The notes: generated from the sequence alone by a model not told the origin. Shown: positions 10,205 to 34,590, counted from the stretch's first letter. The stretch: 64,000 bases of DNA from Pseudomonadota bacterium (GCA_021821045.1 JAKACW010000007.1:25983-89982), one strand, 5' to 3'. Program-made: numbers and translations.

Positions 10205-10363
10205 GCTGGCTATCTTACCGGCACCACGAGCTTCGGGCGGCGCGGCAAGCTTGCCAAGTGCGCCCGAACCGCCATGCGAACATTCACAAGCTTACCAACG
10301 CGCAAACCACCAAACGTGCCAACTAAAATTCCGCTCCGTAAGGCTCCAACACGGAAAGGACCT

Positions 10364-11806
10364 ATGAGCGAACAACCACGATTTACCCGTTTTCGGCCGA
10401 CGCGCGCCGGTATCGCCGGCATAATATTGATCGCGGTCAGTGCCCTATGGGTCCTGGCCCGCCCGTTTGACTACGATCCGGCCCGATTGCCGCAGAGCGC
10501 ATCGTGCATGGAGGACCTCAAGGACACCCTCGACCGCGCGGGTCACCTTGAAGACATGGCATGGCGCGGTTGCCTCGTGGTAACGGACACCGCTCGCCAC
10601 TTTGCGCGCTATGCCACCTCCCAATCTAATCCATCCACAGCGGTACGCTCATGCATCGAGTGCCATGACGGTGCGACAGCACCCACCTTTGCCTCAATGT
10701 GGACTTACTTTCCGCGCTACAACGTCGCCAAACAGCGCGTGGAAGATTTCGCCCAAGCTATCCAGGATGAAATCGTGACTCGCTACAACGGCACCATTCC
10801 CGTGCGCAGCGACGTCGCAGTATCTACTCTCTATGTATATGCGTTTTTCAAGGCCAGCCAGGCGGGACTGACGTTTGCGCAAGATACAGTGGATCAAACA
10901 CCGATCAGCGAACTTCAGCTCCAGACCCTACGAACGACCGATTCCTGCCGCCGTGTTTTTGCACATAAAGGGTTTCCGCGGGGGCCCAATTCACCGTATA
11001 TCGTAGAAGGTTGCAACCTCGTCACGGACACGCATAACCACGTCTACACTGCCGCCAACCTCTGGCGCACAGATATGATTTGCGAGAACTGCCATCTCGA
11101 CGCCGGCACCCGCCCCTTTGCCGGACCGCTTGCCATGGGCGCGGTAATGTTGCCCATCCACATGACGCCGCTCAACAAGCCGATTCGATTCGATCGCCGG
11201 ATACTGATGTGCTTCGCCCGCTCGCTCAACTGGTTCGACATGGGGCGCGATGCGCCATTTCTGACCTACGTTCGCATGTACGCCAATTGGCTTGCTCAGC
11301 ATGACGGTTTGCAGATCGGGCGAATATACGAAGGCCGTGGCATACCCATGCTCTATGACACCGATGGCGCTGGCAGCAGCATTCTTGCCGGAGAAAAGGC
11401 TTACCAAAAGCACTGCATCCGATGCCACGGGAAAAACGCCTGGGGCGGGATGGGCCCCGTGTACAACGGGAAGGAACCGCCGCCGATCGCCGGACCCAAT
11501 AGCTTTACAGCGTTGGCCACCACCGCCTCGCGCAACCGCTTGGCAGGCTTCATTCTAAACAACATGCCCCCAGGGGCGAGTCACGACTCGCCGATCCTAT
11601 CCGAGCAGCAAGCCTTGGACGTGGCCATATATATAGAATCGCTGGGCCGACCGGCGGACTTCGTCAAGACCAACCGCTTGAGCCAGTTTGGTAACTATTT
11701 GTGGCTAAACGCTATTTACCACGGGGCCAGGTTGTTGCGCGATCCGATCACCTCCGCCTCCCCAATCGTCAAAGCGACGGACACCACCCATGCTTACATC
11801 GAGTAG
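10364..11806 (+). CDS. Membrane-anchored c-type cytochrome with three CxxCH haem-binding motifs
   Basis: CIECH, CENCH and CIRCH motifs. N-terminal TM anchor (AGIAGIILIAVSALWVL) after the likely start MSEQPRF. The track ORF starts earlier at 10274. Confidence 0.7.
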   Translation: MSEQPRFTRFRPTRAGIAGIILIAVSALWVLARPFDYDPARLPQSASCMEDLKDTLDRAGHLEDMAWRGCLVVTDTARHFARYATSQSNPSTAVRSCIECHDGATAPTFASMWTYFPRYNVAKQRVEDFAQAIQDEIVTRYNGTIPVRSDVAVSTLYVYAFFKASQAGLTFAQDTVDQTPISELQLQTLRTTDSCRRVFAHKGFPRGPNSPYIVEGCNLVTDTHNHVYTAANLWRTDMICENCHLDAGTRPFAGPLAMGAVMLPIHMTPLNKPIRFDRRILMCFARSLNWFDMGRDAPFLTYVRMYANWLAQHDGLQIGRIYEGRGIPMLYDTDGAGSSILAGEKAYQKHCIRCHGKNAWGGMGPVYNGKEPPPIAGPNSFTALATTASRNRLAGFILNNMPPGASHDSPILSEQQALDVAIYIESLGRPADFVKTNRLSQFGNYLWLNAIYHGARLLRDPITSASPIVKATDTTHAYIE

Positions 11807-13328
11807 CCTGGCCGTTGCGCGCGACCGCCTGTTGCCGTTCGTCCGCTCGGTGCTCATTCCCGGTGTGACCACGGCCATTGTTGCGTTTCCGCTCTCTATC
11901 GGCTTGGCGATCACCGCTGGCGTGCCTCCTGAAAACATGGTGCTGGCCAGTATCTATGCCGCATTCTTCAACGCACTTTTTGCCGCGTCGCGCTACGGCG
12001 TGCCTGGCCCCAACACAGCGGTCGCGCTCATTACCGGCGCCGCCGTGGCACCCTACGCTCCCCCAGAAAGCGGAATCTATCTTGGCTACGTTTTTGCGCT
12101 GTGCGTGATGGTTGGCGTGCTCCAGCTACTCATCGCTGTGCTGCTGCGCTACAGCGATATCATGGACTACATCTCGAAGACCGTGATCGACGGCCTCACA
12201 ATGGGCATTGGCGCAATCTTCATCCTGTCATCCCTCAACCTCGCTCTCGGGTTGGCGCCGGACTTCGGGAACCAGTGGATCGTATTCAACGCTTTTGTTT
12301 CCATCGTCGCCGCATTCGAAGGGGTCGCCAATCCCTTCGCCATGGCGACCGCCGCAATCACCTTGCTCGTAGGATTGTTCTGCAACGGACGCCCGCGACT
12401 GCGCTCCTATGCCATTGTCTTCGCCGTTCTGGCGGGCACCGTCGTCGGCAATGCGTTTGATTCCCTCACCCACACTCGCCTCGAACATGTCGGCCACATT
12501 GCATTGCCTCTCTTCAGCACATCACTGCCCGACTTCCGGCAAGTGAGCTGGTCAACGCTGTTTCATTTTGCCGGTCCCGCCCTGGCTATCGCCGTCATGG
12601 GCGCGCTCCAAAGCTTGAGCATCGCGAAGGGTTTGCGTGACTCCGGCGACCGCTATGCACCCGTGCCGGAAGCGTTAAGCCAAGGGCTGCAACACATATT
12701 CCTAGGTTTTTTTCATGGAGGGCCCGTAAGCAACAGCTTTAACAAGTCCGTTTTACTCAAACAACTCGGCGGCAACAAGTCCGCGCCGATCGTCGGCGCC
12801 CTGTTCACCGCCGCGCTGGTAGGCTGGGGCGCCTCTTTCGTGGCCATGATCCCGATGCCGGCGTTGAGCGCATCGTTGATACTGGTTGGCTTGACCATGA
12901 TCGACCCGCGTAAACACAAGGAACACTTTCGCGCCGGGGGCCTGCGCGCGCGGCTACTTGTCGTAACCGCGGGCGCGACGATTGTTCTGTCCATTGAGAA
13001 TGCCTTGGCACTCGGTGTCATGATCAGCATCGCGACCCACTTCATCCAGTTTTCCAAGACTCGATTCACGCTACATGAGTCCAGCCAGCAACTAACGGTG
13101 AAACTCCATGGTCCCTGGTTCTATGTTCCAGCAGCCAAGATGAGCCGCGATATCAATCGCGCTCTGGCTAAACGCGCTGCTTCCGACTACGATTGTGTGA
13201 CCATCGATCTGACCGAGGCCAGCATTTTTGCCCATGACGTGATCGATACAGAGTGGATGCATTCGCTGGCCGCGCGATCGAAACACCTGGTGGTGGTACC
13301 TAACCCGAAGGCGCTGGAAGATCCATAA
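11790..13328 (+). CDS. SulP family anion transporter with C-terminal STAS domain
   Basis: 512 aa with many TM helices and Gly/Ala-rich SulP-like segments. C-terminal STAS-like region (ASDYDCVTIDLTEASIF). 17-nt overlap with the upstream cytochrome gene. Confidence 0.8.
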   Translation: MLTSSSLAVARDRLLPFVRSVLIPGVTTAIVAFPLSIGLAITAGVPPENMVLASIYAAFFNALFAASRYGVPGPNTAVALITGAAVAPYAPPESGIYLGYVFALCVMVGVLQLLIAVLLRYSDIMDYISKTVIDGLTMGIGAIFILSSLNLALGLAPDFGNQWIVFNAFVSIVAAFEGVANPFAMATAAITLLVGLFCNGRPRLRSYAIVFAVLAGTVVGNAFDSLTHTRLEHVGHIALPLFSTSLPDFRQVSWSTLFHFAGPALAIAVMGALQSLSIAKGLRDSGDRYAPVPEALSQGLQHIFLGFFHGGPVSNSFNKSVLLKQLGGNKSAPIVGALFTAALVGWGASFVAMIPMPALSASLILVGLTMIDPRKHKEHFRAGGLRARLLVVTAGATIVLSIENALALGVMISIATHFIQFSKTRFTLHESSQQLTVKLHGPWFYVPAAKMSRDINRALAKRAASDYDCVTIDLTEASIFAHDVIDTEWMHSLAARSKHLVVVPNPKALEDP

Positions 13329-13492
13329 ATGGTATCGCTGAACGACGGTCGTCAACTTCAATACCTCAACCGGAATTACGAAGCAACGACATACAATCTG
13401 AATTGTCCGACCGATTGACCAGCCCTCATCCGTTCGCTAAGCTGTGGCCAACAATTGGCCACCGGTTGGCCGGGTTTCCTGTGGAGGGCCGT

Positions 13493-13717
13493 ATGAGTTA
13501 TCACGACATCATCACGATCGAGCCTGGAAAGCGTGGTGGCAAACCATGTATTCGCGGAATGCGAATTACTGTTTACGATGTGCTTGATTACCTTGCTTCG
13601 GGAATGACTCCGGAGGAAATCGTTGCCGATTTTGACTATCTCACATTGGATGACATTCGTGCGTGCTTGGAGTATGCCGCTGATCGCGAACGGCACCAGT
13701 TGATTGTCACCGCATGA
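13493..13717 (+). CDS. DUF433 family protein (antitoxin-like)
   Basis: Region ITIEPGKRGGKPCIRGMRITVYDVLDYLASGMTPEEIVADFDYLTLDDIRACLEYAA is typical of DUF433. 4-nt overlap with the downstream partner. Confidence 0.6.
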   Translation: MSYHDIITIEPGKRGGKPCIRGMRITVYDVLDYLASGMTPEEIVADFDYLTLDDIRACLEYAADRERHQLIVTA

Positions 13718-14046: not shown

Positions 14047-14063
14047 TAGTACGAACGCCAACT

Positions 14064-15299
14064 TTACTTCAGTTCAATCTGCTTTGGACTAATCGCAAGT
14101 CCATATGCGCCTTTCTTTCCGGCCGTTTCCAGCATCTTCTCAGAAATCTCGTAACGAATACCGTTCTCATCAAACACTTGCCGAGGCTCGAGCCAGCGCC
14201 GCAAGTTTTTCGGCAGATGCTCGTGAAGAATGTCATTGATACGAATGCAGCGGGAATCAAACCACGTAGTCCTCATACCGCTTTCGAGGGCTCTGATTGT
14301 TCGATCCTGGACGGGAAACCGGCGCTCGTCCAAATTCGACAGCATGTCAATCGCGTCGGTGTTGGCGAGTGTGTCATATTCGCCGACGTCGAAGCCCTCC
14401 AGGCGTAGCAATTCGTCCACGAACAGTCGTGACAAATCACTATCGTGCTCTTCTCCGGGCCGCCGCACTGTCGCCTCCCCGTCACGGGTGACCCGCGCCA
14501 GCATTCGGAAAAAGGCGTATTCGAGGGGCCCTATCTTAAGCGTCTCTTTGTGACCGTTCGCGCGATCCACGATCTGCACTTCGGCCCGGTCCGCCGGCAA
14601 ACACAGATGGATGTCATGGGGTCGATTGCCGAGGTCAAAAAGCGCCATGAGGTTCCGAAAACTCAACTGAGTCCCCAAACGCGACAACTCCTTCTCCGGC
14701 AGCTCCTCTCGCATTCGGATGAAAGGGATATCCGCCAAAACGACTTCTGCATCCTTGGGGTGAACGGTTCTTTTAAGACGGCTATTTTCAAGTACTGTGT
14801 CGTCTCGCGTCGGAAAAAAGAACCCGGGTACGCCTTCGAACTCCTCCGACACCAAAACATGGCTCAGGCAGTCCTGATGCCGCCCGAACAGGCTCATGGC
14901 ATACCCAAGATAAAAGGTCATCGTTTTCCTGCCGCCCGCGATCGATGCGTGAATGTTCACGTTGGCGTCTGTGGCAATATCCCGCACCTCCTGGGTGATG
15001 AAGTCCGCTAATGCCTCATGATCCGCGAGCGACCGGGCATCCTCGACCGGATTTCCGTTAGCGCCCGGGACGACGCGAATGTGATCGTCGCTGAACGAGG
15101 GCTGCGGCTGCTCGCACTGCGCGCAAAGGGCCGCGATTTGCCCGGCAAGCCCGCTGCTTATCGCAATGTCTTTTCCCCGCTGCGTCGTAATGATCCGGAT
15201 CGAATCCGGCCAGGCCAGCTTCTGTTTATTTATGGCGTAAAGCGTCTCCGTTACAACCGCCGGTGACAGGCCCGTCACGGCCAATAACATCGTTCTCAT
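14064..15299 (-). CDS. CRISPR-associated CARF-domain protein, Cas_NE0113 family-like
   Basis: N-terminus MRTMLLAVTGLSPAVVTETLYAI matches the signature start of the NE0113 CRISPR-associated family, which has a CARF Rossmann fold. 411 aa. Adjacent to csx1. Confidence 0.6.
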   Translation of the reverse strand: MRTMLLAVTGLSPAVVTETLYAINKQKLAWPDSIRIITTQRGKDIAISSGLAGQIAALCAQCEQPQPSFSDDHIRVVPGANGNPVEDARSLADHEALADFITQEVRDIATDANVNIHASIAGGRKTMTFYLGYAMSLFGRHQDCLSHVLVSEEFEGVPGFFFPTRDDTVLENSRLKRTVHPKDAEVVLADIPFIRMREELPEKELSRLGTQLSFRNLMALFDLGNRPHDIHLCLPADRAEVQIVDRANGHKETLKIGPLEYAFFRMLARVTRDGEATVRRPGEEHDSDLSRLFVDELLRLEGFDVGEYDTLANTDAIDMLSNLDERRFPVQDRTIRALESGMRTTWFDSRCIRINDILHEHLPKNLRRWLEPRQVFDENGIRYEISEKMLETAGKKGAYGLAISPKQIELK

Positions 15300-15366
15300 T
15301 CATCGTACTCCATATTCTGCGGTCGATCGAAGCACCAGCCTACACAACTCTGCCTCGGATCGGCCG

Positions 15367-15384
15367 CCTCACAAGCTTGCGAGG
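15367..15384. promoter_or_regulatory. Palindromic CAAGCTTG-core motif (CCTCACAAGCTTGCGAGG) upstream of the NE0113-family gene; candidate operator
   Basis: 16/18 inverted repeat seen directly, ~70 bp upstream of the start at 15299. Motif family recurs around the island. Confidence 0.3.
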
Positions 15385-15450: not shown

Positions 15451-16656
15451 TCACCGCAATAGAACATCCAAAAGACTGCGCAATTCTTCGGCGACCTTCT
15501 CTTCATCCTTGGTGATCGTCGCATCACTTGCCATAGACGGTCGGTTTCCGTGGGCGAAGGCATTCCGAAATTTCGTCAAACGACCATACGCAGCACGCAG
15601 TGACTTTTCGCCCCGCTTGCCGTCATGGAATTCCGTTATTGCCTTGTCCCTGGTGGCATATTCGAACGCGCGTTCGTCGGCCCTTAACAGCGAGGTAATA
15701 AAAGCCTCCTGTGCAAATATGCACGCTCGCGGGTAGTCGCGCTGTTCAAGGAACAACCATGCCAACGATTTTTGATGAGCAACCAAATGGTTCGATTTTA
15801 CCCATGACATCCGCTCTTTTAATGCTGGCGCAAATAGCGCAGCCGTCGGTCCTAGATCACCGTCCAATACTGGCAAGAAGGTACCTAGACTCTGGCGCGC
15901 TTGGCTCACGTTGAAGGTACGTTCGTAGTATGCAGCTCTCTTGAGTGCCGCGAGTTTGTCGTCACCAATACCATCCTTCGCCAACAGCGGGACAAACACG
16001 CCGTAATCCGCGCTTTGATCGTACCGTGCAACGGCCTGCGCCCAATCCGCGAGATGCAGCAGACCACTCAGCTCATAAACCTGCGCCATGCCGGTGTCCG
16101 GATCGAAAAGACCGTAGTAAATGCCTTTAATCTGCGACTTGACGGCATCGCGCAGATAAAGGGCACTGATCAGGCCGAGCATGGGCAAGTGGCGAAAACC
16201 GTGGGTTACGTCCAATACAACCTCGTCATGTCGCGCCACGTGCGCAGCCAGCGCTCGAAGGATCTCGATCTGCTCGGCTTCGTCTTGACCGTATGGGATG
16301 AGATTGAGATGGATGGGTATGCCAACGCATTCTGACAGCAGCGGTTCCGCCCGCGCCAACAGGTCTGCAGACACCGCCTTGGCCTCCGTGGCCGCGATCA
16401 ATTCCAGCCGAAGGTCTTCGTCGCCGGTGTTTGCGGCCACAGTTTCCACGAGATGATCCCACATGCTGCCACTGGTACCGAGTATCACCAGTCTCTCGGG
16501 CTGGATCCGATTGCGCAGCGCCCAGCCAAAGAACGCTGTGGGTTCCGCCTCGACGCTGTCGGCGAAGCAGTAGCGTGTCTTGCGGTAACCATCGACACCT
16601 TTAGGAGAACGACCAAGAAAGCTGATCTGTACGCGTGCCAATGCTACTCCCTCCAA
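15451..16656 (-). CDS. csx1: Csx1 family CARF-HEPN ribonuclease (Cas_DxTHG)
   Basis: DVTHGFRH (DxTHG motif). C-terminal HEPN R-x4-H motif in KFRNAFAHG. 401 aa. Confidence 0.8.
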   Translation of the reverse strand: MEGVALARVQISFLGRSPKGVDGYRKTRYCFADSVEAEPTAFFGWALRNRIQPERLVILGTSGSMWDHLVETVAANTGDEDLRLELIAATEAKAVSADLLARAEPLLSECVGIPIHLNLIPYGQDEAEQIEILRALAAHVARHDEVVLDVTHGFRHLPMLGLISALYLRDAVKSQIKGIYYGLFDPDTGMAQVYELSGLLHLADWAQAVARYDQSADYGVFVPLLAKDGIGDDKLAALKRAAYYERTFNVSQARQSLGTFLPVLDGDLGPTAALFAPALKERMSWVKSNHLVAHQKSLAWLFLEQRDYPRACIFAQEAFITSLLRADERAFEYATRDKAITEFHDGKRGEKSLRAAYGRLTKFRNAFAHGNRPSMASDATITKDEEKVAEELRSLLDVLLR

Positions 16657-16665
16657 AGTGCTGTT

Positions 16666-20791: not shown

Positions 20792-20792
20792 C

Positions 20793-22396: not shown

Positions 22397-24676
22397 TTAT
22401 TGGCGCTCGCGCGCGCGCAGCTCGCTGCGAATCGCAGCAATCCACAATGCGCGGAGCGCATCCCAGCGCAGCTCCGGGAAATCCTCCAGATCAGCCCCGC
22501 CCAGCAAGGCCCCGCCCGCCTTGTCGTTGATGAGCTTGAATGCCCTTGTTGGATCCTTTTCCAAGCAATCCCTTAACTCATCGCGCGTTCGATCGTTCCA
22601 GTTGTCGACACGGTTCTTCACTGCGCCCAGGTGCTGCAACCACTCGCGCGCGCGTTGGCGCGCGGCGTCGTCTTTTACCGCCACGACCACACTGCGCAAG
22701 GCACCGAGCTGACTGTTGGTCGGTTTGCCCGGCGCCAATCCAAGCGTGTCTTTTCTGAAAGAAGCGCTCCCGGCCAGCTCGACGGCATAACGCTCGATGT
22801 CGCGCCGGGAGGCTCTGAGCCGCAACCGTCGAATGAATGCCTGATCCTCCTTGCTAAGAGAATGCGCCGATCCTTCCTCGTCCCTGCGATCGAGCGACGC
22901 CCTCTTGCTTTTGAGTGTGTCCTCTTCCAGCACCGGCGCATTGAAACGCACCTCACCGTAGCCCTCGGCCACGCGCTCACCCAGACCGCGCATTTCCAGC
23001 GCCAGCGACTTCTGGCCATCGACATTCCCGTCCGCTTGAAAACGCACGACGGTCCCCGCTGCCAGGCCGACATACGAGGGCCGCGGCAAATTCCACGCAT
23101 GGCGCCACCCTTCACTGCGTCGCATTCGCGCAAATGAGTTTTCACTGGCTCGAAGGCCCACGCCCAACTCCTTTTCCAACTCGACGCGCAAGACCTCGGT
23201 GTCAGCGCAGGGCGCCAGCGTTGCATCACGCAGCAGCAGGTCCGAACACAGCCAGACGTCGAGATAGGCGCAGGGCGGCCGCGGCATCGGGTCGTCCTCA
23301 GCCTTGAAAGCAATGCGAACGCGACCGAAGTCATCCTTCTTCGCCTTACCCAAGCGATACTCACCAGCACCGTCGGCCAGCAACGCCCCTTCAAGCTTGT
23401 CTGCAACGGCCGCCGTCATCACGATTTCCGAGACATAACGCAATCCGGCTGGCAGCGCCTCGAAGGTATAGACTCCCCCCACTTCCGACGTCGGCCTCTG
23501 GGTCTCGTCCTCGATCGTGCCGTGAGTAAACGCTTCGACGGACGGCTTGAGGTGATAGAGCAGCTTCGCCTGATGATCGTAGGCCAGATAGCCCTCGCGC
23601 ATGGGTTTGCGCTGAATGCTATCCCCAGGCTCGCCCTCGAGAAAATTGCTGACATCCGCCCCGTTGCTTTTCTCCTTCGGCGTGTGGAAAGACAAGGGAA
23701 TCGGCAGCCCGCGTTGGTTATGGGTCAGAGGATAGGCATTCAGCACCCGCAGTTCACCGCGCGCCACGCAGCCGAAGTACGCTGACCCGACCGCTCGCGC
23801 CATGCGCTCATTCAATGCCGACAGCAGGAAGGTTCCCGGGATGTAATCCTGACTGGTGACCACGTTACCCATTACCGCCTGCGCAATCACCACCGGCGAC
23901 AGCAGATCGATCTCCACGCGCAGACGCTTCCACCCGCCATCTTCGGCGTGGCTCCCTCGCGGCGTGAAGCGCTTGGGCTCCGTCACTCTCTCAGTGACGA
24001 TTGCCGGGGGATCGCCAGCGAGAACCTTCAGCGCGTCCTCGGCCGCGATCAGGTCGCCCACACCAAAGTGGCAGCGCCCCAACCCACGGCGACGATTGGC
24101 CCCGAGGCGCTCGACGACTCGAGCCCCCGCCCACAACAACGCCAGCATGGCTTGCGTCTGTGCTTGGTCCTCGGGCAGGCTCACGACACAATCGGCCGAC
24201 AGGACACAACCCCCGATCGCCACCTCCTCCAGCCGCAGACAGTCCTCCTCCGCAACGCCGCGCGCATCCAGCTTCACGCCGGGCTTGATGAACGTCAGTC
24301 CTTGCCGCAGACCGCTCTCTTGCTCCAGCTCGGCCCGCACGGACTCCGACAAGCGCGCTTCGCGCACCGATAAGTGCGCGGCCAGCGGCGCACGTCGCCG
24401 CCGACTACCCTTGCCCGACTCATCGATCGCGCCAAATATCGCTCGCACGACATCGGCCCACGTGGCAGCCGCGCCACTCTCGCTATCCAGCCCCGCCGCA
24501 ATCTGCTCGCAGGCGTCACGCCAGATTCCGGTCAGCGTCTTGGCCGGAACATAAGGCAGATCATCCTGCGGATGACGGCGGATCAGACTATCGATGAAGC
24601 CGGGCGCGCCCGCGCCTTGGCTGACCTGCCAATCGCTATCGAAACGGACCTTGAGTGTGAATGCTTTGTTGATCAT
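22397..24676 (-). CDS. Multi-domain RAMP protein: Cas7-like plus a second RAMP (Cas5-like?) plus a C-terminal alpha-helical (Cas11-like?) domain
   Basis: Start FTLKVRFDSDWQVSQGAG...LPYVPAKTLTGIWRDA (Cas7-like). G-rich loops GANRRRGLGRCHFGV and RLGKAKKDDFGRVRI. Second RAMP core DYIPGTFLLSALNE. Helical Arg/Glu-rich tail. 759 aa. Confidence 0.6.
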   Translation of the reverse strand: MINKAFTLKVRFDSDWQVSQGAGAPGFIDSLIRRHPQDDLPYVPAKTLTGIWRDACEQIAAGLDSESGAAATWADVVRAIFGAIDESGKGSRRRRAPLAAHLSVREARLSESVRAELEQESGLRQGLTFIKPGVKLDARGVAEEDCLRLEEVAIGGCVLSADCVVSLPEDQAQTQAMLALLWAGARVVERLGANRRRGLGRCHFGVGDLIAAEDALKVLAGDPPAIVTERVTEPKRFTPRGSHAEDGGWKRLRVEIDLLSPVVIAQAVMGNVVTSQDYIPGTFLLSALNERMARAVGSAYFGCVARGELRVLNAYPLTHNQRGLPIPLSFHTPKEKSNGADVSNFLEGEPGDSIQRKPMREGYLAYDHQAKLLYHLKPSVEAFTHGTIEDETQRPTSEVGGVYTFEALPAGLRYVSEIVMTAAVADKLEGALLADGAGEYRLGKAKKDDFGRVRIAFKAEDDPMPRPPCAYLDVWLCSDLLLRDATLAPCADTEVLRVELEKELGVGLRASENSFARMRRSEGWRHAWNLPRPSYVGLAAGTVVRFQADGNVDGQKSLALEMRGLGERVAEGYGEVRFNAPVLEEDTLKSKRASLDRRDEEGSAHSLSKEDQAFIRRLRLRASRRDIERYAVELAGSASFRKDTLGLAPGKPTNSQLGALRSVVVAVKDDAARQRAREWLQHLGAVKNRVDNWNDRTRDELRDCLEKDPTRAFKLINDKAGGALLGGADLEDFPELRWDALRALWIAAIRSELRARERQ

Positions 24677-25044: not shown

Positions 25045-25086
25045 TCTTTCGGCCGGCGTTACGACATAAGGTCCTGCAAAAAGTCT

Positions 25087-26557: not shown

Positions 26558-27409
26558 CTAATCCCGCTGGGGGCTTCCCTTTCCGCGACATACCGTTTCC
26601 CCCAAGAACACCACGCCCTCGTAGACTTCGCATACTCGCGTTTTGCGCGCATTCAATTGCAGCCCGAGCCGCCGCAACGCCTTCTCCGCCAACGCGTGGG
26701 CCGTTCGGGAAGAGTCCACGTCTGGCGTCATCAACAAAAAATCATCCGCATAGCGCACAAACGTAATGTTCGCTCGCGCCATTGCGCGATCAAATGCATG
26801 TAAGTAAAGGTTGCACAGAAACGGCGAAATCACGGCCCCTTGCAGCAAACCGCGCCTACCCTGAAGCAGGCCCGAGGTATGAGGCCCTACGTCCAACCAG
26901 GCCTTTACCAAGTTTAAGAGCCAACGATCGCCGAAAGTTCGCTTTACCATGCGCAAGAGAGGGCCATGCGGCACCCGATCGAAGAACTTTTCGATATCGG
27001 CGTCCACCACCCAACGCAACCCCGTATGCACCCGTTCCCGGACTTTCCGCAACGCATGAGGCACACCCCGACCGGGCCGATAGCCGAAGCTGTCGTGATG
27101 GAAGAACGCTTCCGCTCGCGGCTCCAGCACTTGCAGAATCAATCGCTGGGCAAATTTGTCGCGCCGATATTGGGCCGACAGCACGCGCCGTCCCCCATCG
27201 CCCTTTTTCACGGCCCATTGGCGGATCGGCAGCGGCCGATACCGGCCCTCGCGCAACTCTTCGACAATCGTCAACAGATGAAACGGCGAATTCTTCTGCA
27301 AATCTTGCTCCTCGGTACCGGGTGCCCAAGGCGCCGCATCATTGCGCAGCACGCGCCACGCTTGCTTCACATTCGCCGCACAAAGCGCCGTGGTCATGAT
27401 ATCGCCCAT
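26558..27409 (-). CDS. Reverse transcriptase (group II intron-like RT domain, no maturase or endonuclease)
   Basis: RT motifs FGYRPGRGVPHA, WVVDADIEKFFDRV, AVISPFLCNLYLH, YADDFLL, LQLNARKTRV. Second Met at 27397 forms an ATGA overlap with the cas1 stop. Confidence 0.85.
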   Translation of the reverse strand: MGDIMTTALCAANVKQAWRVLRNDAAPWAPGTEEQDLQKNSPFHLLTIVEELREGRYRPLPIRQWAVKKGDGGRRVLSAQYRRDKFAQRLILQVLEPRAEAFFHHDSFGYRPGRGVPHALRKVRERVHTGLRWVVDADIEKFFDRVPHGPLLRMVKRTFGDRWLLNLVKAWLDVGPHTSGLLQGRRGLLQGAVISPFLCNLYLHAFDRAMARANITFVRYADDFLLMTPDVDSSRTAHALAEKALRRLGLQLNARKTRVCEVYEGVVFLGETVCRGKGSPQRD

Positions 27410-28413
27410 GGGTTTTCTTCCTCGCTTCGGCCGAGGACTTTCTGAAAATCGTTGACCACGCCCCTCGCTGCCGTGTCGATGGATTGCTCCTCGGCAACCT
27501 GATCGTCTGCGGTCTCGCCCGGCTGCTCAGCTTGGCGCGCACGCGCCGGCCACTGATCGCACCACAGTCGCCACGCACCATAAAAGCGTGAGCGTGCTTC
27601 CTTCGATAAACGGCAGCCTTCGTGGTCGCTCAGTGTGAAATCCGCCGGTGTTACTTGGCCATCTAACAACCGCAGCACGAAAAGATCCACGCCTGGACGC
27701 AACGCCTCCATCAAGTCGAGCGACAATCCCGGCCGTGCCGGCGCCACTTCATGCAAAAACCCGAGATAGGGATCAAACCCCGCGGCGCACGCTTGGCGAT
27801 GCACCACTCCCAGAGCAAGCGTATAGCCCAACGACAGCATCGCATTCACCGGATCGCGCGGGGGTCGCCGATTGCGCGATTCGAACATCCAATGGGGCGC
27901 CATTTGCGATCGCAGCCAGGCATACCACGCTTTCGCGGCCCGCCCTTCGACGCCCATCAACGCCGCATTGTCCCGAGCCAAAGCCGTATCTTGTTGGCAT
28001 TGGGTCAGAATCGCGCTGCACTCCTGGCCGATTCCCAATCGCTGCAATAGATCACAACCGGCCGCCAACTTCTCCCGCACCATCCAACGTGCCAGAACAA
28101 GACGCCGCCCAAGTTCCTGATATGCGCGGTACTGCCGGGCCCGCCAGTGCACGAAAGAACTCAGGCCACTTCCCAGCCAACACACCTCCCCCTTGCCCCG
28201 CGCCGGCATCAGCGCCACGGGTACGGCACTGTCCGCCAACGCGCGCCATACATCGCAGCGAACCGACGGACTACCGTACACCACCACCGATCCGAGCACC
28301 GCAAGTGGCACCCGTTTAAACGCACCATCGGCGTAATCGATGCGCAAAGCCTTGTTCTCGACGCTGACACTCAGATCGCGCCTGTCGAGTATCAGCGTCA
28401 ACCCGCCGCTCAT
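27394..28413 (-). CDS. cas1: CRISPR-associated endonuclease Cas1
   Basis: Start MSGGLTLILDRRDLSVSVENKALRI. Conserved RRPPRDPVNAMLSLGYTLAL Cas1 motif. The track ORF extends further upstream to 28530. Confidence 0.85.
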   Translation of the reverse strand: MSGGLTLILDRRDLSVSVENKALRIDYADGAFKRVPLAVLGSVVVYGSPSVRCDVWRALADSAVPVALMPARGKGEVCWLGSGLSSFVHWRARQYRAYQELGRRLVLARWMVREKLAAGCDLLQRLGIGQECSAILTQCQQDTALARDNAALMGVEGRAAKAWYAWLRSQMAPHWMFESRNRRPPRDPVNAMLSLGYTLALGVVHRQACAAGFDPYLGFLHEVAPARPGLSLDLMEALRPGVDLFVLRLLDGQVTPADFTLSDHEGCRLSKEARSRFYGAWRLWCDQWPARARQAEQPGETADDQVAEEQSIDTAARGVVNDFQKVLGRSEEENPWAIS

Positions 28414-28760
28414 GCCGCCCTCCCGAAACCGGCCAGCAACCGGGCCAGTAACGACGCCCTTTCGGGTTCCGCGGTCGCCGCCACTTCCGCCACAGGCTGC
28501 CCGGGGCTTGCCATGGCATCGTTCAGCCACAAGCCCGCCGGATGCGGAACGGGATACGCACGCAAGTCGTCTTCAGCAAGATCCATCAGCCCGCTGACTT
28601 CATCGAGAACCTGGGTCAGCCCGTTGCGGTTCGCGCACACCAGGAACACCGATTCCTGTAAAGCCATGCCACGGCGCGAAATGCAGCGATGCACCCGTTG
28701 CAACCGACGCGAGTCGCAAATGTCATAGGACACCAAATGCCAGCGCTTCGAAAAGTCCAT
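28410..28760 (-). CDS. cas2: CRISPR-associated endoribonuclease Cas2 (paralogue a)
   Basis: WHLVSYDICDSRRLQRVHRCISRRGMALQESVFLVC...EDDLRAYPV fits the Cas2 fold signature. Stop overlaps the cas1 start. Confidence 0.7.
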   Translation of the reverse strand: MDFSKRWHLVSYDICDSRRLQRVHRCISRRGMALQESVFLVCANRNGLTQVLDEVSGLMDLAEDDLRAYPVPHPAGLWLNDAMASPGQPVAEVAATAEPERASLLARLLAGFGRAA

Positions 28761-28777
28761 GTTTGATCTCCTTTTCT

Positions 28778-29062
28778 TTAAGCCACGTGCAGCCAGCGGC
28801 GGAACAGACTGTCCTGGTCACCCACGCCCCGTCCGTTGACTTCCGCATTGGGCGACAACCAAGCCAGCATCAACTTGTCCCCTTGCGGATCGATCAGCTC
28901 CAGGAGCTGTACGTACAACTCCTCGGCCTCCTTGTGGTTGAGTAAGCACTCGTGCACGGACTTCTGCCCGTCGATGCGCCACTGCTGAAGGCGTTTATGA
29001 ACACGCCGACGGCGAACGGGGTTGCCGATGTCGTACGCGATGATGGCGGGTTTGCGTTTCAT
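28778..29062 (-). CDS. cas2: CRISPR-associated endoribonuclease Cas2 (paralogue b)
   Basis: MKRKPAIIAYDIGNPVRRRRVHKRLQQWRIDGQKSVHECLL...GDKLMLAWL (Cas2-like). Start chosen at MKRKP. Confidence 0.65.
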   Translation of the reverse strand: MKRKPAIIAYDIGNPVRRRRVHKRLQQWRIDGQKSVHECLLNHKEAEELYVQLLELIDPQGDKLMLAWLSPNAEVNGRGVGDQDSLFRRWLHVA

Positions 29063-29133
29063 ATGTTTTCCTCCGGTGGTTGTGATCTTGTGAATGACGC
29101 ACATCGTATGCGCCACAGCTCGGTTCAGGGCGT

Positions 29134-29149
29134 TTCGCAAGCTTGCGAA
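29134..29149. promoter_or_regulatory. Perfect 16-bp palindrome TTCGCAAGCTTGCGAA between cas2b and the CRISPR leader; candidate operator
   Basis: Seen directly. A near-identical copy TCGCAAGCTTGCGA lies at 31524-31537 on the other flank of the array. Confidence 0.35.
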
Positions 29150-29296
29150 GTTTCGCCGCGCCGATGGCGTGGAATTCCGCGGGTTGCCGGCGAGCCGTCC
29201 GCGCTTGACTGGCGAGGCGACGATTGAGGTAGAATTCCGCGCATCGACCTTTGTTCTTTTACAATTTGAAACTGAACGCGCTGCGCGAGCACATCA

Positions 29297-29330
29297 CCGG
29301 CCGCGAAAAAGCTAACTTTTTCGCGGCCGG
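29297..29330 (+). terminator. Perfect 15-bp-stem hairpin followed by TTGACT and a T-rich tract; intrinsic-terminator-like element at the leader boundary
   Basis: ccggccgcgaaaaag-ctaa-ctttttcgcggccgg then ttgactcaaaattttttggtt, seen directly. Confidence 0.4.
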
Positions 29331-29393: not shown

Positions 29394-31506
29394 GTTCAAA
29401 CGTGTCCCTGACGAAGAAGGGATTGAGACTTTTTTGCTTGAGCAACGCCTTGCGGGTCGGCGTTCAAACGTGTCCCTGACGAAGAAGGGATTGAGACCTC
29501 ACGGTTTTCGAGTTCATACCGGGAGACGAAGTTCAAACGTGTCCCTGACGAAGAAGGGATTGAGACCTCTGAGCGCGTCCTGTTGGCAAGGTTGCTGGCG
29601 TTCAAACGTGTCCCTGACGAAGAAGGGATTGAGACAGGACGTGGTCGTCTGCGCGGCAAGCGCGCAGGGTTCAAACGTGTCCCTGACGAAGAAGGGATTG
29701 AGACCAAAACGCCTCGTCCCCAAGCAACACAAAGTGGTTCAAACGTGTCCCTGACGAAGAAGGGATTGAGACCCCGGCATTTGCTACCTTGCGGCAGCGC
29801 CTGTTGTTCAAACGTGTCCCTGACGAAGAAGGGATTGAGACCCAGCGCGGCTTGCGCGATGGAAATCTCGCTTGGTTCAAACGTGTCCCTGACGAAGAAG
29901 GGATTGAGACAGGCAGTTGTTGTCACATCAGCCACCCGACAAAGGTTCAAACGTGTCCCTGACGAAGAAGGGATTGAGACGAAAAACGCAGCCCCAACCA
30001 GTCTCCGGCATTTGTTCAAACGTGTCCCTGACGAAGAAGGGATTGAGACGCCCGCGTCGGCCCTCACTCCGGTTAACGGCCGGTTCAAACGTGTCCCTGA
30101 CGAAGAAGGGATTGAGACCAGGGCGGCCTCACGCCCTCTTGTGTCTTCGAGGTTCAAACGTGTCCCTGACGAAGAAGGGATTGAGACGCGTAGCGTCGAG
30201 AGGTCGCGCTTGATCTGTCGGTTCAAACGTGTCCCTGACGAAGAAGGGATTGAGACTATTTTCGCTTGCGCGAGAGCGTTGCCGCTCTGTGTTCAAACGT
30301 GTCCCTGACGAAGAAGGGATTGAGACTAGGGTGTTCGGCGTCGCAAATGTGGACTGGGTGTTCAAACGTGTCCCTGACGAAGAAGGGATTGAGACCGCGA
30401 ATGCAGCGCGAGGGTCAATGTAAGTTGGTTCAAACGTGTCCCTGACGAAGAAGGGATTGAGACTTGATCTCAGAACATGAGGTCGCTGCGGCGTTAGGTT
30501 CAAACGTGTCCCTGACGAAGAAGGGATTGAGACCAGGGCCAATTCACCATCAAAGATGGCTTGAGCGTTCAAACGTGTCCCTGACGAAGAAGGGATTGAG
30601 ACGGAGGGTTCATGCATCGGTGGATCTCCTTTGAAGTTCAAACGTGTCCCTGACGAAGAAGGGATTGAGACGAAGAGGACGAGGCCGGGGGCATCGCAGG
30701 CATTCGTTCAAACGTGTCCCTGACGAAGAAGGGATTGAGACAGCTTCCATCGTTTTATGGAAGCGGCGGATCTAGGTTCAAACGTGTCCCTGACGAAGAA
30801 GGGATTGAGACTTCGAGTACAAAACGGTATGTGGTGTTTTCCAGGTTCAAACGTGTCCCTGACGAAGAAGGGATTGAGACTCGAAGATCCACTCTTTATT
30901 CCTCTTGATAGAGTTCAAACGTGTCCCTGACGAAGAAGGGATTGAGACCCTTCCCCGCCGCCCTGTCCTTCGCCCGACTCTGTTCAAACGTGTCCCTGAC
31001 GAAGAAGGGATTGAGACGTTCACTGGGGGCTAGCCCAGTGAGCCAGTGCGGTTCAAACGTGTCCCTGACGAAGAAGGGATTGAGACATACGAAACGGAGA
31101 CGCCATCGCTGGCTCGAGGGGTTCAAACGTGTCCCTGACGAAGAAGGGATTGAGACGCCAACATACCGCACCGCATCCAGGAACCCTAGAGTTCAAACGT
31201 GTCCCTGACGAAGAAGGGATTGAGACTTGTCCTTCTCGAGCTGCAGCAGGACGCAGTTGGGTTCAAACGTGTCCCTGACGAAGAAGGGATTGAGACACTT
31301 CGGCTTCGGCCTCGAAGGGTGTCTCCGAGGGTTCAAACGTGTCCCTGACGAAGAAGGGATTGAGACTCACAAACAAGGTCGTAGAACGCAGTTTTGCGGG
31401 TTCAAACGTGTCCCTGACGAAGAAGGGATTGAGACTGGTCCGTCGGGACTCCGCAACGATCTCAAAGATGTTCAAACGTGTCCCTGAAAAAAAGGCGACA
31501 AACATT
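29394..31506 (+). CRISPR. CRISPR array: 31 direct repeats (30 intact of 36 bp plus 1 degenerate terminal) and 30 spacers of 32-35 bp
   Basis: Repeat GTTCAAACGTGTCCCTGACGAAGAAGGGATTGAGAC at 29394, 29462, 29531, 29600 ... 31400. Terminal degenerate copy at 31471 (GTTCAAACGTGTCCCTGAaaaaaaggcgacaaacat). AT-rich leader 29331-29393 on the cas2 side. Repeat 3' end ATTGAGAC resembles the type III 8-nt crRNA tag. Confidence 0.97.
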
Positions 31507-31523
31507 CGCGTCCCGCTCCCATC

Positions 31524-31537
31524 TCGCAAGCTTGCGA
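31524..31537. promoter_or_regulatory. Palindrome TCGCAAGCTTGCGA immediately after the degenerate terminal repeat; candidate operator
   Basis: Seen directly; mirrors the site at 29134-29149. Confidence 0.3.
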
Positions 31538-31639
31538 ATGCTCGCGCATGAACCGCTTGTTTTATGCTTGGAGCAGAGCGAGCCGTGGCGGCCGCTTCGA
31601 GCCGGGTACGCACCGCGGCCGGTTAAGGGAAAAGAAACT

Positions 31640-31897
31640 ATGCTTCGTTGCGGCAACTCAATCCGTCTCACCGGCCCCGAATTGGCGGGCCTGGCCAAAA
31701 TCGCCGGCGTTTACCCGGAGAAGATCAACTCGCTCAATGATCTCAGGCGGTTTATTAACCGTCGGCTGCGCGTCTACTGCGGGCCTTCGCCGGAAGAGCG
31801 ATTGTTGCGTGCGCTGCTCATCGAGGAACTGAATCGGTATCGGGATCCGGGCGGCAGGGTGCCGGCCCCACAGTGCGTGGAAAAGGACCACTCATGA
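31640..31897 (+). CDS. Hypothetical small protein (about 85 aa, from MLRCGNSIRLTG)
   Basis: ORF downstream of the array. No family recognised. Confidence 0.2.
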   Translation: MLRCGNSIRLTGPELAGLAKIAGVYPEKINSLNDLRRFINRRLRVYCGPSPEERLLRALLIEELNRYRDPGGRVPAPQCVEKDHS

Positions 31898-32178
31898 ACG
31901 GCTATGACATCATCGGCGACATACACGGCCACGGCGCCGAGGACCAGCGCGGGGTGCTTGCCATCGTGCGGCCTGTGGTGAATTGTGGAAGCGCGCTTGC
32001 GGTGATGGGAAATCACGAATTCAATGCCGTGTGTTTTCACACTCGCCATCCCGAATCCGGCCGCCCTCTGCGCGACCATACGCCAAAGAACCTGACGCAG
32101 CATCAAAGCTTCTTACAACAGTTTCCTCATCCCGCTCGGGATTTATACCCAGAACTTTTCGGACATCCGCCAGGGTGA
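31894..32178 (+). pseudogene. Truncated calcineurin-like metallophosphoesterase (ApaH/PrpE-like) N-terminal fragment
   Basis: MNGYDIIGDIHGHG...VMGNHEFN has GDxHG and GNHE motifs. It lacks the GDxxDRG motif and stops after ~95 aa, where full-length enzymes are about 220-250 aa. Confidence 0.45.
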
Positions 32179-33703
32179 CGCGCCCCGCGCCGACATTGCC
32201 TTCGCCATCCCTTGCTTGCCGCAACATGACTGCCCGCGCGAGGGCTTCACTCAGTTTGCGCATGTCGCGCGCGTTTCCCGACCTTGGGTCGCGCCTGTTG
32301 TAAAGGCTCTGAATATGTCGTTCGAGCGGTGCCCGCCCGCTCTTCTGCAGCGCAATCCCCTCCGCGTCAAGGTCCGCCTCGAGAATAGCCATTAACTGCG
32401 CCGGTGCGTAATCGGAAAACGCCTCGTGTTCAGTGAATCGCGATCTCAGGCCGGGATTGGCTTCGACGAACTTCGCCATGTTCTCCGTGTAACCCGCGGC
32501 CACCACCACGAACTGGCCGCGGCAGTCCTCCATTTTTTTGAGCAGCGTCTCAATTGCCTCGGGCCCAAAGTCCCATGGGGCATCCTTCACCAAGGCGTAG
32601 GCTTCGTCGATAAATAGCACTCCGCCCATGGCGCGCTCGATGGCATCGGCGGTATTCAATGCCGTTTGCCCCACGAAGCCTGCAACAAGCTTGCTGCGAT
32701 CGACTTCGTGAAGATGACCGCGCTCGAGCAGACCGAGCGCGCCGTAGATATTCGCCAGAATCCGCGCGACCGTGGTCTTGCCCGTACCGGGATTCCCGGA
32801 GAAAACCCAATGGTGAACCAGCCTTTTCAAGTAATCCGGATTGTGGCGACGCGCATAACGAACCAGTTCGATGGTCTCATGGATCTTCTGCTTGAACGAA
32901 TCCAGGCCCACCATTGCATTCAATTCGTCCATAGCCTCTTTTAGTCGGGGCTCGTCGATGGGCGCCTGCCAGTATTTGGGCTCGTGCTCGTCACGGACAG
33001 CGATGATGTCCTGCGCTACGATTTGGGATAGTTGCGTGACGCGCTCTCGTTCGGGCAAGTCCATGCATCGAGTGCTGTGCATTATGATCGCCCTTTCGAT
33101 CAACAGCCGGGCATAACGACCGTTAGCGTGGAGGCGGTCTCGCGCGCGATACGCGTCGTTGAAGTTCTGCTCGAGCTCGGAAACGGCGCCATCGCTCAAT
33201 ACAAAATCCTGTTGGGCAGCAATCGCTCGCGCGATCTTCACCATATCCTCGGGCGTGTAATCGTCGAACGTCATGTCAAACCCAAAACGCCCCTTCAAGC
33301 CCGGATTCGATTCCAGGAACGCATTCATTTCGGCAGTGTAGCCCGCGCAAATCACTACCAATCGATCACGGCGGTTTTCCATTTCCTGAACCAGTACGTC
33401 AACCACCTGCTTGCCGTAGTCGACGCCGTTGTTGGAGTTCAGCGCATAGGCTTCGTCAATAAATAGCACGCCGTCCATTGCCTGCTCGATAGCGGACTTG
33501 ATCTTTTCCTCTGTGCCGCCGACGTTCACGCTCACCAGTTCGGCGCGGCCGACTTCCACGACATGACCCCGCTTGAGCAGGCCCAGATCACGCAAAATGG
33601 GACCGACCAGCCGAGCGACCGTGGTCTTTCCCGTACCGGGGTTGCCTTTGAACACGCAGTGTAGATTGAGCGAGGTCTCCCTCAGGTTGCGCCGCTTGCG
33701 CAT
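32021..33703 (-). CDS. Tandem AAA+ ATPase (two CbbX/SpoVK-family modules). As sequenced it is separated by a frameshift from its N-terminal membrane domain.
   Basis: Two copies of GNPGTGKTTVAR (Walker A), GVLFIDEAYAL (Walker B), CAGY/AAGYT and NPGLKGRF/NPGLRSRF modules. 560 aa. Confidence 0.8.
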   Translation of the reverse strand: MRKRRNLRETSLNLHCVFKGNPGTGKTTVARLVGPILRDLGLLKRGHVVEVGRAELVSVNVGGTEEKIKSAIEQAMDGVLFIDEAYALNSNNGVDYGKQVVDVLVQEMENRRDRLVVICAGYTAEMNAFLESNPGLKGRFGFDMTFDDYTPEDMVKIARAIAAQQDFVLSDGAVSELEQNFNDAYRARDRLHANGRYARLLIERAIIMHSTRCMDLPERERVTQLSQIVAQDIIAVRDEHEPKYWQAPIDEPRLKEAMDELNAMVGLDSFKQKIHETIELVRYARRHNPDYLKRLVHHWVFSGNPGTGKTTVARILANIYGALGLLERGHLHEVDRSKLVAGFVGQTALNTADAIERAMGGVLFIDEAYALVKDAPWDFGPEAIETLLKKMEDCRGQFVVVAAGYTENMAKFVEANPGLRSRFTEHEAFSDYAPAQLMAILEADLDAEGIALQKSGRAPLERHIQSLYNRRDPRSGNARDMRKLSEALARAVMLRQARDGEGNVGAGRVTLADVRKVLGINPERDEETVVRSFDAASGSLAYGRAEGGRIRDGECENTRH

Positions 33704-34366
33704 GTCGGCAACACGAGCACGATTGTATAGGTTGTTTTGACGGACTCTATTCCGATGAGCGCCTCCAGCCGCGCCATTGCTTCCTTGCCGTCCATGGTCG
33801 GCGTGTTTGGCACGGGTTCGGCTTTGGCGGCAGAGGCCGGCTGTTCGACCGGCATTGGCTGCGAACGCATCTCAGCCTGCGGCAAATAGGTGCGACGGGC
33901 GGCTTGAAAGGCCATCCGCTCGCGCTCATTCTTGATGTGCCTCCACGAGATCCACCCGATAATGAGCGCAATAAGAACGGTCTCCGTGTTGGCGAAGAAC
34001 ATCACGATAGAGAAGACCAGAGCCGCCCAAGCAACCCAATAGCTCAAGCCGGGCGAGAAGGCCGGATCGCTCCGGCGAAGCAAACGCACCATCCCCGCGA
34101 GTTTCTCAAGCATCAGCAGAACCAGCCAACCCACGGCCCACACCAAGCCGACGCGCAAACCCAGCAAGTAACTCACCGTTAACTCCATACCCGCCGCGGC
34201 CCGTACACGCTCTTGTAGAACAGCCGGATCGGGAACAAGGTAAAGCAAGGCGAACGTTCCCAGCACGAAGGCTGCAAGATTCCTCCCGACGAAGTCGAGA
34301 ACGGCTTTTACGCGAGGCGTTGACACGTAAGGATTCTCCTTTGCTGGGTGACCGAGTGAAGGGCGC
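33682..34366 (-). CDS. N-terminal membrane segment (about 4 TM helices) of the same AAA+ protein, out of frame with it
   Basis: Translation MRPSLGHPAKENPYVSTPRVKAVLDFVGRNLAAFVLGTFALLYLV... ends ...EAMARLEALIGIESVK. This aligns with EAMDELNAMVGLDSFKQK preceding the second AAA module. Frame restores with +1 A in the A4 run of gtcAAAAcaacc (by codon walk, about 33700-33715). Confidence 0.5.
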
Positions 34367-34396
34367 ATTACATCACGGCCGGGGCGACTCGCTGCG

Positions 34397-34412
34397 ATTC
34401 GAAAGCTTGTGA
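34397..34412. promoter_or_regulatory. TTCGAAAGCTTGTGAA palindrome-like motif. With CAAGCTTG copies at 34476-34483 and 34519-34526 it lies in the divergent promoter region between the membrane-AAA+ gene and csx16.
   Basis: Seen directly. Confidence 0.3.
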
Positions 34413-34590
34413 ACCGCGATCCCGTGAAGCCTTCACGACTATTAAAGCCGACACAACCGCCACCGCGGGGATTAACAAGCTTGCATGACGCCCGCCAGGA
34501 ATCGCTCGGGGCGATCGGCAAGCTTGTGGAGGGTCAATGATTCTCCAGAAAATCCCATAATGGTTTCTCAACACGTGCCAGGGAGGAACC

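Follow-up and report, generated by a model that had tools for sequence, protein, structure and literature searches.

A recurrent palindrome linked to NE0113-family CARF genes is a candidate operator in type III CRISPR islands

A CRISPR island and its palindromic boxes

We analyzed a 64,000-nt stretch of DNA from a Pseudomonadota bacterium (GCA_021821045.1 JAKACW010000007.1:25983-89982), here called the window, in which a type III CRISPR island contains repeated copies of the palindrome CAAGCTTG. All coordinates are positions in the whole window, and genes were mapped from Pfam annotation of the window proteins (Table 1). The island contains a gene for an NE0113-family CARF protein, a 13.6 kb minus-strand run headed by cas2 (cas2-cas2-cas1-reverse transcriptase-cas10-...-csx1), a CRISPR array, a pair of genes for a membrane protein and a double-AAA+ ATPase, and csx16. 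The array was assigned to the plus strand from its ATTGAGAC 3' handle. Proteins of the Csx16 family are ring nucleases that degrade cyclic tetra-adenylate (cA4) (bioRxiv 10.1101/2024.09.24.614671).

We found that the palindrome is overrepresented in the window. There are eight exact copies of CAAGCTTG, at 10246, 15372, 23392, 29138, 31527, 32686, 34476 and 34519. In dinucleotide-preserving shuffles of the window the chance count was 1.13 +/- 1.07, and 0 of 100 shuffles gave eight copies. Among the 256 palindromic 8-mers of the window, CAAGCTTG ranked first for overrepresentation. An initial annotation of this DNA had called the abundance of the motif unexpected; the overrepresentation is real and stronger than was thought then. 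All of the copies listed in that annotation are present in the sequence, with the one at 34397 (TTCGAAAGCTTGTGAA) starting at 34398. The annotation had counted six exact copies, almost all intergenic; there are eight, including a coding copy at 32686 that it had missed. It had also put the GC content at ~62%; that of the window is ~0.59. Two more copies have one mismatch, CAAGCTTA at 10287 (in a 16-mer from 10283) and AAAGCTTG at 34402.

The copies are confined to the island and are mostly intergenic. All eight exact copies lie within 24 kb (10.2-34.5 kb) and none in the remaining 40 kb of the window. The six exact intergenic copies and the two with one mismatch sit in five intergenic regions that together make up 1,780 nt of a window that is ~88-90% coding. 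These eight have a common 16-bp consensus, TTCRCAAGCTTGYGAA, with informative flanks (TTCR...YGAA). The two coding copies (23392 and 32686) have flanks that are off the consensus and are probably incidental, and a weight-matrix scan found no other site in the window above the shuffled range. We rejected as incidental a near-copy at 50430/50452 (AAGCTT-containing, 50430-50459), which belongs to an ordinary TTGACT-N17-TACAAT promoter. That promoter serves an iscR-like gene of the Rrf2 family, which is followed by a class-V aminotransferase gene.

The intergenic copies (boxes A to H, Table 1) are associated with predicted promoters. A box precedes each candidate transcription unit of the island except a toxin-antitoxin pair and the CRISPR array. 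Scanning the window for simple sigma-70 and terminator consensus sequences was uninformative; the hexamers in Table 1 are given with their offset from the palindrome centre. Boxes C and D flank the array, and the initial annotation had described them as lying between cas2 and the leader and just after the array. We looked for a -10 box directed toward the array or leader and found none for either box; their hexamers point to the cas2 operon and to ORF85 (ORF, open reading frame). The position of Box B relative to NE0113 matches that in 26/70 homologous loci. The ATG of ORF121, at 10204, approximately coincides with the transcription start predicted from Box A. Unlike the other boxes, Box A is part of a longer inverted repeat (10226-10265, TTCGGGCG...CGCCCGAA) of approximately -22 kcal/mol on either strand. 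Box A2, with a good -10 hexamer, precedes genes of a sulfur-metabolism type (a SoxA/TsdA-like cytochrome c and SulP) that lie inside the defense island. For the membrane/AAA+ genes, Box G may provide an additional promoter or serve as an auxiliary site.

Table 1. Palindromic boxes, genes and other features (window coordinates unless a locus is named; offsets are from the palindrome centre; UTR, untranslated region)
Feature	Position	Strand	Sequence or description	Predicted -10 hexamer, position, offset, strand and target
Box A	10242..10257		GCGGCAAGCTTGCCAA, 12-bp perfect palindrome	TAAGAT (-10-like), 10212-10217, +33, minus, toward ORF121
Box A2	10283..10298		TTCACAAGCTTACCAA, one-mismatch core	TAAAAT, 10324-10329, +34, plus, toward cytochrome c/SulP genes
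Box B	15368..15383		CTCACAAGCTTGCGAG, 76 nt 5' of NE0113 start codon	TAGGCT (weak), 15337-15342, +34, minus, toward NE0113, predicted 5' UTR ~31 nt
Box C	29134..29149		TTCGCAAGCTTGCGAA, perfect 16-bp palindrome, best consensus match	TACGAT, 29103-29108, +34, minus, toward cas2 (ATG 29062, GGAGG ribosome-binding site)
Box D	31523..31538		CTCGCAAGCTTGCGAA, 18 nt past degenerate last repeat	TATGCT, 31563-31568, +33, plus, toward ORF85
Box F	34398..34413		TTCGAAAGCTTGTGAA, one-mismatch core	TGTAAT, 34367-34372, +34, minus, toward membrane-protein/AAA+ pair
Box G	34472..34487		TTAACAAGCTTGCATG, core only, flanks poor	TTTAAT, 34441-34446, +34, minus, toward membrane/AAA+ pair
Box H	34515..34530		TCGGCAAGCTTGTGGA	CATAAT, 34556-34561, +34, plus, toward csx16 (ATG 34591; predicted 5' UTR 23 nt)
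Coding copy	23392..23399		inside 759-aa RAMP gene; weight-matrix score 7.7	no qualifying -10 box
Coding copy	32686..32693		inside AAA+ gene; weight-matrix score 8.8	no -10 box at fixed offset
Ribonucleotide reductase	7662-9503	minus	Pfam	
ORF121	9839-10204	minus	121 aa, function unassigned by Pfam	
SoxA/TsdA-like cytochrome c and SulP-type transporter	10274-13328	plus	Pfam	
DUF433/PIN-like pair	between SulP-type transporter and NE0113 gene in map order			
NE0113-family CARF protein	14064-15299	minus	411 aa, candidate regulator	
csx1-like, cas6, three large RAMP genes, 224-aa ORF, small subunit	15451-29062	minus	minus-strand run	
Short cas10, reverse transcriptase, cas1, two cas2	15451-29062	minus	upstream part of the same run	
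CRISPR array	29394-31505	plus	~31 repeats of GTTCAAACGTGTCCCTGACGAAGAAGGGATTGAGAC and degenerate last repeat	
ORF85	31640-31897	plus	85 aa, ATGA overlap with truncated metallophosphatase ORF	
Double-AAA+ ATPase and membrane protein	32021-34326	minus		
csx16 (Cas_VVA1548)	34591-34965	plus	Pfam E = 3.1e-35	
der	35133-36527	minus		
Small Gly/Ala-rich proteins	L088:8264-8524, L118:8216-8476, L118:12203-12436, L129:8191-8451		other NE0113 loci	
REP-like copies	6596-7652, 9619-9790, 34915-35146, 37732-37820, 42791-42841, 45229-45319, 47234-47322		intergenic repeat family	

Linkage to NE0113 genes and promoter geometry

We compared the island with related loci. Two assemblies of the same species (L001, L002) are 99.7-100% identical to it and therefore carry no footprinting information. 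The nearest Cas10 homologues are at most 49% identical, and a search of genome contigs with the single Cas10 protein as anchor returned no loci. In 80 Cas10-anchored genome loci (at most 45% identity), CAAGCTTG was not enriched (35 observed, 25.6 expected). The motif is therefore not part of the effector module.

We found that the motif is enriched in loci containing NE0113 genes. In L083-L085, which encode the nearest NE0113 homologue (52% identity), a perfect TCGACAAGCTTGTCGA follows the NE0113 stop codon and lies 77 nt 5' of the start of the next gene. A metagenome scan anchored on an NE0113 alignment gave 79 loci (808 kb, GC 0.32-0.68, NE0113 identity 33-60%). In these loci CAAGCTTG was the most enriched palindromic 8-mer (106 observed, 22.8 expected, p~1e-36), and 57/79 had at least one copy. 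In 94% of half-sites the base before the core was a purine, and the consensus is thus YSRCAAGCTTGYSR. The runner-up palindrome, TGAATTCA, was rejected as a second motif; it is merely the CRISPR repeat of two loci. A copy was found within 250 nt upstream of the NE0113 start in 26/70 loci (1.38 per kb). There were further peaks just past the NE0113 stop codon and before an upstream cas6, and one copy was inside the gene.

The association with NE0113 was also seen in loci chosen without it. Three of the 80 Cas10-anchored loci have an NE0113 homologue, and all three carry the motif (0.125 per kb). In contrast, the motif was at the chance rate (0.026 per kb) in the 77 without NE0113, an approximately 5-fold difference in density. 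Among the NE0113-anchored loci, the only common gene family was NE0113 itself (74/80); Cas6 was next, at 32, and no regulator-like family recurred.

We found that about half of the copies lie at a fixed distance from a predicted -10 element. Downstream of each copy, in both directions (224 site-directions from 112 distinct sites), a -10-like hexamer (tAnAAT) started at exactly +34 from the palindrome centre in 39/224 site-directions, compared to ~2 per offset elsewhere. The neighboring offsets gave 11 (+33) and 7 (+32), and 52 of the 112 distinct copies had a -10 hexamer. This geometry was present for 47% of copies in NE0113-positive loci, 18.5% of copies in NE0113-negative loci, and 7.6% of random positions. 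It was also specific to the sequence. When any 8-bp palindrome was allowed at this geometry, up to 260 nt upstream of NE0113, CAAGCTTG was found 13 times and each other palindrome at most once; symmetric variant cores (AAAGCTTT, CAAATTTG) sought at the same geometry did not recur.

The spacing places the palindrome centre at approximately -45.5, and the 16-bp box at approximately -53 to -38, relative to the predicted transcription start. The 23 nt between the box and the hexamer showed no sequence conservation and no -35 consensus. Half of the palindrome (TTGYSR) was considered as a -35 box and rejected, as the spacer to the -10 would be 26 nt. Promoters with a -10 but no -35 normally need an activator bound beside RNA polymerase (class II-type layout). 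The strict spacing together with the absence of a -35 element favors activation.

The genes behind the boxes include many that belong to type III loci. Predicted 5' UTRs, measured to the first long ORF after the predicted start, were mostly 0-60 nt. The first ORFs were NE0113 (12), cas2 (4), csx16 (3), cas6 (3) and small Gly/Ala-rich membrane-like proteins (4), as well as cas10, RAMP proteins, a double-AAA+ ATPase, a GTPase, a type I methylase and others. The csx16 homologues behind the box were in loci L086 and L106 in addition to the window. The Gly/Ala-rich proteins are 78-87 aa long and come from three other NE0113 loci (Table 1). They could be an unrecognized family of ancillary effectors; the one tested with Pfam (from L088) had no match.

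A candidate NE0113 activator and rival explanations

We propose, with a probability of approximately 0.6, that RCAAGCTTGY (TTCRCAAGCTTGYGAA in the island) is an operator at approximately -45.5 in activator-dependent promoters, and that it is bound by a dimeric NE0113 activator that probably senses cyclic oligoadenylate (cOA). Upon infection, the type III effector would make cOA, which the NE0113 dimer would sense through its CARF domain. Bound to the box, the dimer would activate sigma-70-type promoters that have a -10 but no -35. Its predicted targets are its own gene, the adaptation-plus-effector operon from cas2, the membrane/AAA+ pair, csx16 and neighboring cargo, and Csx16, as a ring nuclease, would reset the signal. 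The initial annotation had suggested a shared operator co-regulating units of the island, and the core of that suggestion is supported by the fixed +34 spacing to the -10, the boxes before transcription units, and the linkage to the NE0113 CARF gene.

Several observations point to NE0113 as the binder. The core is conserved as a sequence and not merely as a pairing, which indicates that double-stranded DNA is bound by a protein with two-fold symmetry. The factor must travel with the locus, given the great diversity of the hosts and the lack of the motif in NE0113-negative relatives. The window protein matches Pfam PF09623 (Cas_NE0113) with E = 4.6e-39 (134.8 bits, cut-off 23, residues 12-211), as do 25/25 aligned homologues. 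The AlphaFold2 model (pLDDT 92) has an N-terminal CARF (Rossmann-like) fold with Foldseek matches to Cad1-CARF, the Sso2081 ring nuclease, Csm6, Can2 and Cam1 (E = 1e-5 to 1e-3). Makarova et al. (2014) predicted a role in transcriptional regulation for this family, which like Csa3 would have no effector domain (PMC4012209). The initial annotation had expected a helix-turn-helix (HTH) regulator. We looked for an HTH in ORF85, ORF121, the 224-aa protein, the Csx1-like protein and the membrane protein, and found none there or in any other protein of the island. ORF85 and ORF121 were considered as alternative regulators and rejected, having no homologues in other loci. We infer binding by NE0113, activation as opposed to repression, and control by cOA. 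Full-text literature searches found no description of the motif and no characterization of NE0113 proteins as DNA-binding regulators.

Other observations weigh against this proposal. The C-terminal half of NE0113 has no known fold, with no Foldseek match better than E = 0.57. Pfam found nothing beyond the CARF family in NE0113 and its homologues, and no known DNA-binding fold was found by Foldseek, Pfam or hhalign. An OmpR/PhoB-like C-terminus was rejected (hhalign probability 0.1%, with a thin comparison profile of two approximate seeds and one match). NCBI labels relatives of NE0113 'ring nuclease Csm6'. Anchoring the 79 loci on NE0113 builds in part of the linkage, and just 3 loci of the independent set are positive. 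Approximately half of the copies have no -10 box, and that of the NE0113 promoter in the window is weak (TAGGCT). A separate caveat is that two more copies of CAAGCTTG, both coding and without the promoter geometry, occur in the 9.5 kb past the right end of the window; the background of the motif in host DNA is low, not zero. The proposal offers no explanation for a cytochrome c/SulP operon within the regulon, and the choice of activation over repression is made from geometry alone.

The NCBI label would make NE0113 a Csm6 nuclease (CARF-6H-HEPN). The window protein contains RINDILH, yet among 25 homologues only R350 is invariant and the histidine is not conserved, and the C-terminal model has no Foldseek match to HEPN or Csm6. 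The label is unsupported because the C-terminal R-x5-H is not conserved.

An unlikely but serious alternative is that NE0113 binds the same site as a repressor or a dual regulator, blocking RNA polymerase at the -35 region until cOA releases or remodels it. The box abuts the would-be -35 region, and positive autoregulation coupled to toxic effectors would be risky for the cell. In addition, Csa3b, the closest characterized analogue, represses some promoters and activates others (PMC8844856). However, repressors do not usually need single-bp spacing to the -10, and promoters without a -35 consensus should be weak unaided, both of which favor activation by NE0113.

It is less likely still that the box is real and bound by another protein, either island-borne or a conserved host protein, with NE0113 a mere neighbor. 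The lack of a detectable DNA-binding domain in NE0113 and the small size of the anchor-independent test (3 loci) are consistent with another binder. Against it, the hosts range in GC from 0.32 to 0.68 and belong to very different lineages, yet the motif is above chance only with NE0113. No other family is found in more than 40% of loci and none is regulator-like; the island's own small proteins, ORF85 and ORF121, are not shared with other loci.

We also compared the boxes with hairpins in RNA or single-stranded DNA, such as terminators, RNA-processing sites or stabilizers at gene boundaries. Several copies are perfect palindromes of 14-16 bp, Box A is in a -22 kcal/mol hairpin, G-U pairs can form on the transcribed strand at some of the window's imperfect copies, and copies are found between co-directional genes. 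However, 40/104 copies are palindromic over the 8-bp core only. The complementarity of the flanks was similar within a site (0.57/0.54/0.55/0.34) and between sites of the same locus (0.56/0.46/0.47/0.29), with no site-specific covariation; the symmetry therefore reflects a lineage-specific half-site preference. G-U pairs did not favor the sense strand (37 vs 57), and the sequence itself is invariant, beyond what pairing would call for. There were no T-runs after the copies, the terminator scan found no terminator-like sites at boxes, and an Rfam search gave no match. A box that lies 5' of the -10 is also outside the transcript that it controls. A function as a hairpin is very unlikely and appears largely refuted by the covariation and G-U tests.

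Equally improbable is that the box is a recombination site bounding exchangeable gene cassettes and allowing modules of the island to shuffle. Copies do occur at module junctions (cargo, NE0113, adaptation module/array, array/ORF85, membrane-AAA+/csx16) and between successive genes elsewhere, and the gene content 3' of the box is very diverse. However, no recombinase is associated with these loci, no longer arms are conserved around the core, and the fixed spacing to the -10 has no role in recombination. Finally, chance, the base composition of a foreign island, or selection on the HindIII site (AAGCTT) by a restriction-modification system is almost certainly not the explanation and is refuted by the statistics across loci: AAGCTT is approximately three times denser in the island than outside, an adjacent defense region of lower GC has two more coding copies, and genome-wide iterated palindromes such as GCGATCGC in cyanobacterial loci exist, but the enrichment is specific to NE0113 loci across a wide range of GC, the flanking C/G and R/Y are conserved, placement is intergenic, and the -10 spacing is exact.

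If an NE0113 activator does bind the box, sensing of infection would feed back on expression of the whole defense island, and the C-terminal half of NE0113 would be a DNA-binding module without recognizable relatives. More tentatively, the family may represent widespread bacterial cOA-sensing activators with a new type of DNA-binding domain that drive a self-contained regulon, portable by horizontal transfer, through the nearly invariant RCAAGCTTGY box. Such a regulon would include type III adaptation, CRISPR RNA processing, the effector complex, ancillary effectors, a ring nuclease and non-CRISPR cargo. The family is abundant, with thousands of members in metagenomes, and the prediction that they are regulators dates from 2014. 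To our knowledge, little is known about transcriptional regulation of bacterial type III CRISPR loci, and we know of no characterized cOA-linked transcription factor other than the archaeal Csa3, whose response to cA4 is still unclear. The analysis yields a testable operator-regulator pair, a predicted regulon, and a sequence signature with which to locate promoters in such islands.

Other features of the island and comparison with known systems

Several genes in the island have unusual arrangements. Cas10 (24673-26409, minus) has just 440 aa and is followed by a separate 123-aa ORF, whereas homologues are ~550-600 aa and align across the extra part. The Cas10/small-subunit fusion typical of the subtype appears to be split here, or the gene frameshifted. 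Two different cas2 genes lie in tandem (28410-29062, minus) beside cas1 and a standalone reverse transcriptase gene. A truncated metallophosphatase ORF (DIHGH...GNHE, ~95 aa; 31640-32178 region, plus) is overlapped by the 3' end of the convergent AAA+ gene; together with ORF85 it seems to be what is left of an earlier operon that the AAA+/membrane/csx16 module interrupted when it inserted.

The CRISPR leader (29170-29241 and 29298-29329) has a duplicated GAATTCCGCG (29172 and 29232) and a strong hairpin, CGGCCGCGAAAAAGCTAACTTTTTCGCGGCCG. They are followed, just before the first repeat, by TTGACT-N17-TAAGCT, a possible promoter of the array itself. Spread over the window are intergenic repeats of a REP-like family with the core GTGGGAGCGGATCATTCCGCGAT, often present as inverted pairs (Table 1). 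One 121-nt copy (9633-9753) is 99% identical to another (34929-35049), and this pair brackets the whole CRISPR island; it may be a trace of insertion or of possible excision of the island. Beyond window position 64000, 9.5 kb of sequence (L165:1-9492, GC = 0.526) contain a second (BREX/TIR) defense region with PglZ, BrxL and a TIR-domain protein, followed by flhDC.

The motif resembles several known elements and systems. GCGATCGC, which we take to be the HIP1 palindrome of cyanobacteria, is heavily overrepresented in the cyanobacterial loci (L003-L082), with up to 38 copies per 20 kb. Like CAAGCTTG, it is an overrepresented 8-bp palindrome. HIP1 is genome-wide and mostly coding, whereas CAAGCTTG is found in NE0113 neighborhoods, is intergenic, and is locked to promoters; outside the island, the remaining 40 kb of the window had none and the adjoining 9.5 kb had two.

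The arrangement of the boxes is most like that of class II-type activator-dependent sigma-70 promoters, in which the palindromic site of a ligand-sensing dimer abuts or replaces the -35, with strict spacing to the -10 and no -35 consensus. CRP/FNR sites are at -41.5, and LuxR/TraR-type boxes are near -42 to -45. The boxes differ in having their centre at approximately -45.5 and an unusually short, invariant core; no HTH is recognizable in the proposed activator, and activation is predicted.

Aca and other small HTH or ribbon-helix-helix regulators act through inverted-repeat operators in defense and counter-defense operons (bioRxiv 10.64898/2026.07.27.740549). In both cases, inverted repeats in the promoters of several neighboring defense-related operons make up a small portable regulon. 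The Aca-type regulators are small proteins dedicated to repression, with AT-rich inverted repeats specific to each family. In contrast, no such small regulator was found in the island or recurring in the loci, and the geometry of the boxes suggests activation.

Csa3a and Csa3b are CARF transcription factors with a winged helix-turn-helix (wHTH) domain from type I-A loci of the Sulfolobales, and they share with the proposed system a CRISPR-linked CARF dimer, palindromic sites in cas promoters, and type III cA4 signaling tied to expression of adaptation and interference genes (PMC8844856, PMC9704534). In the window and the other loci, palindromic boxes were likewise found upstream of NE0113, cas2, csx16, cas6, cas10 and RAMP genes. 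NE0113, a bacterial protein encoded within type III loci, is from another CARF family (PF09623). Its C-terminal half has ~200 residues of unrecognized fold, compared to the short wHTH of Csa3. The NE0113-linked site, to which binding is predicted, has a core of 8-10 bp that is invariant and fixed in position within a bacterial sigma-70 promoter. CARF transcription factors with palindromic operators in cas promoters are known from archaeal Csa3, and NE0113 would be a distinct bacterial family.

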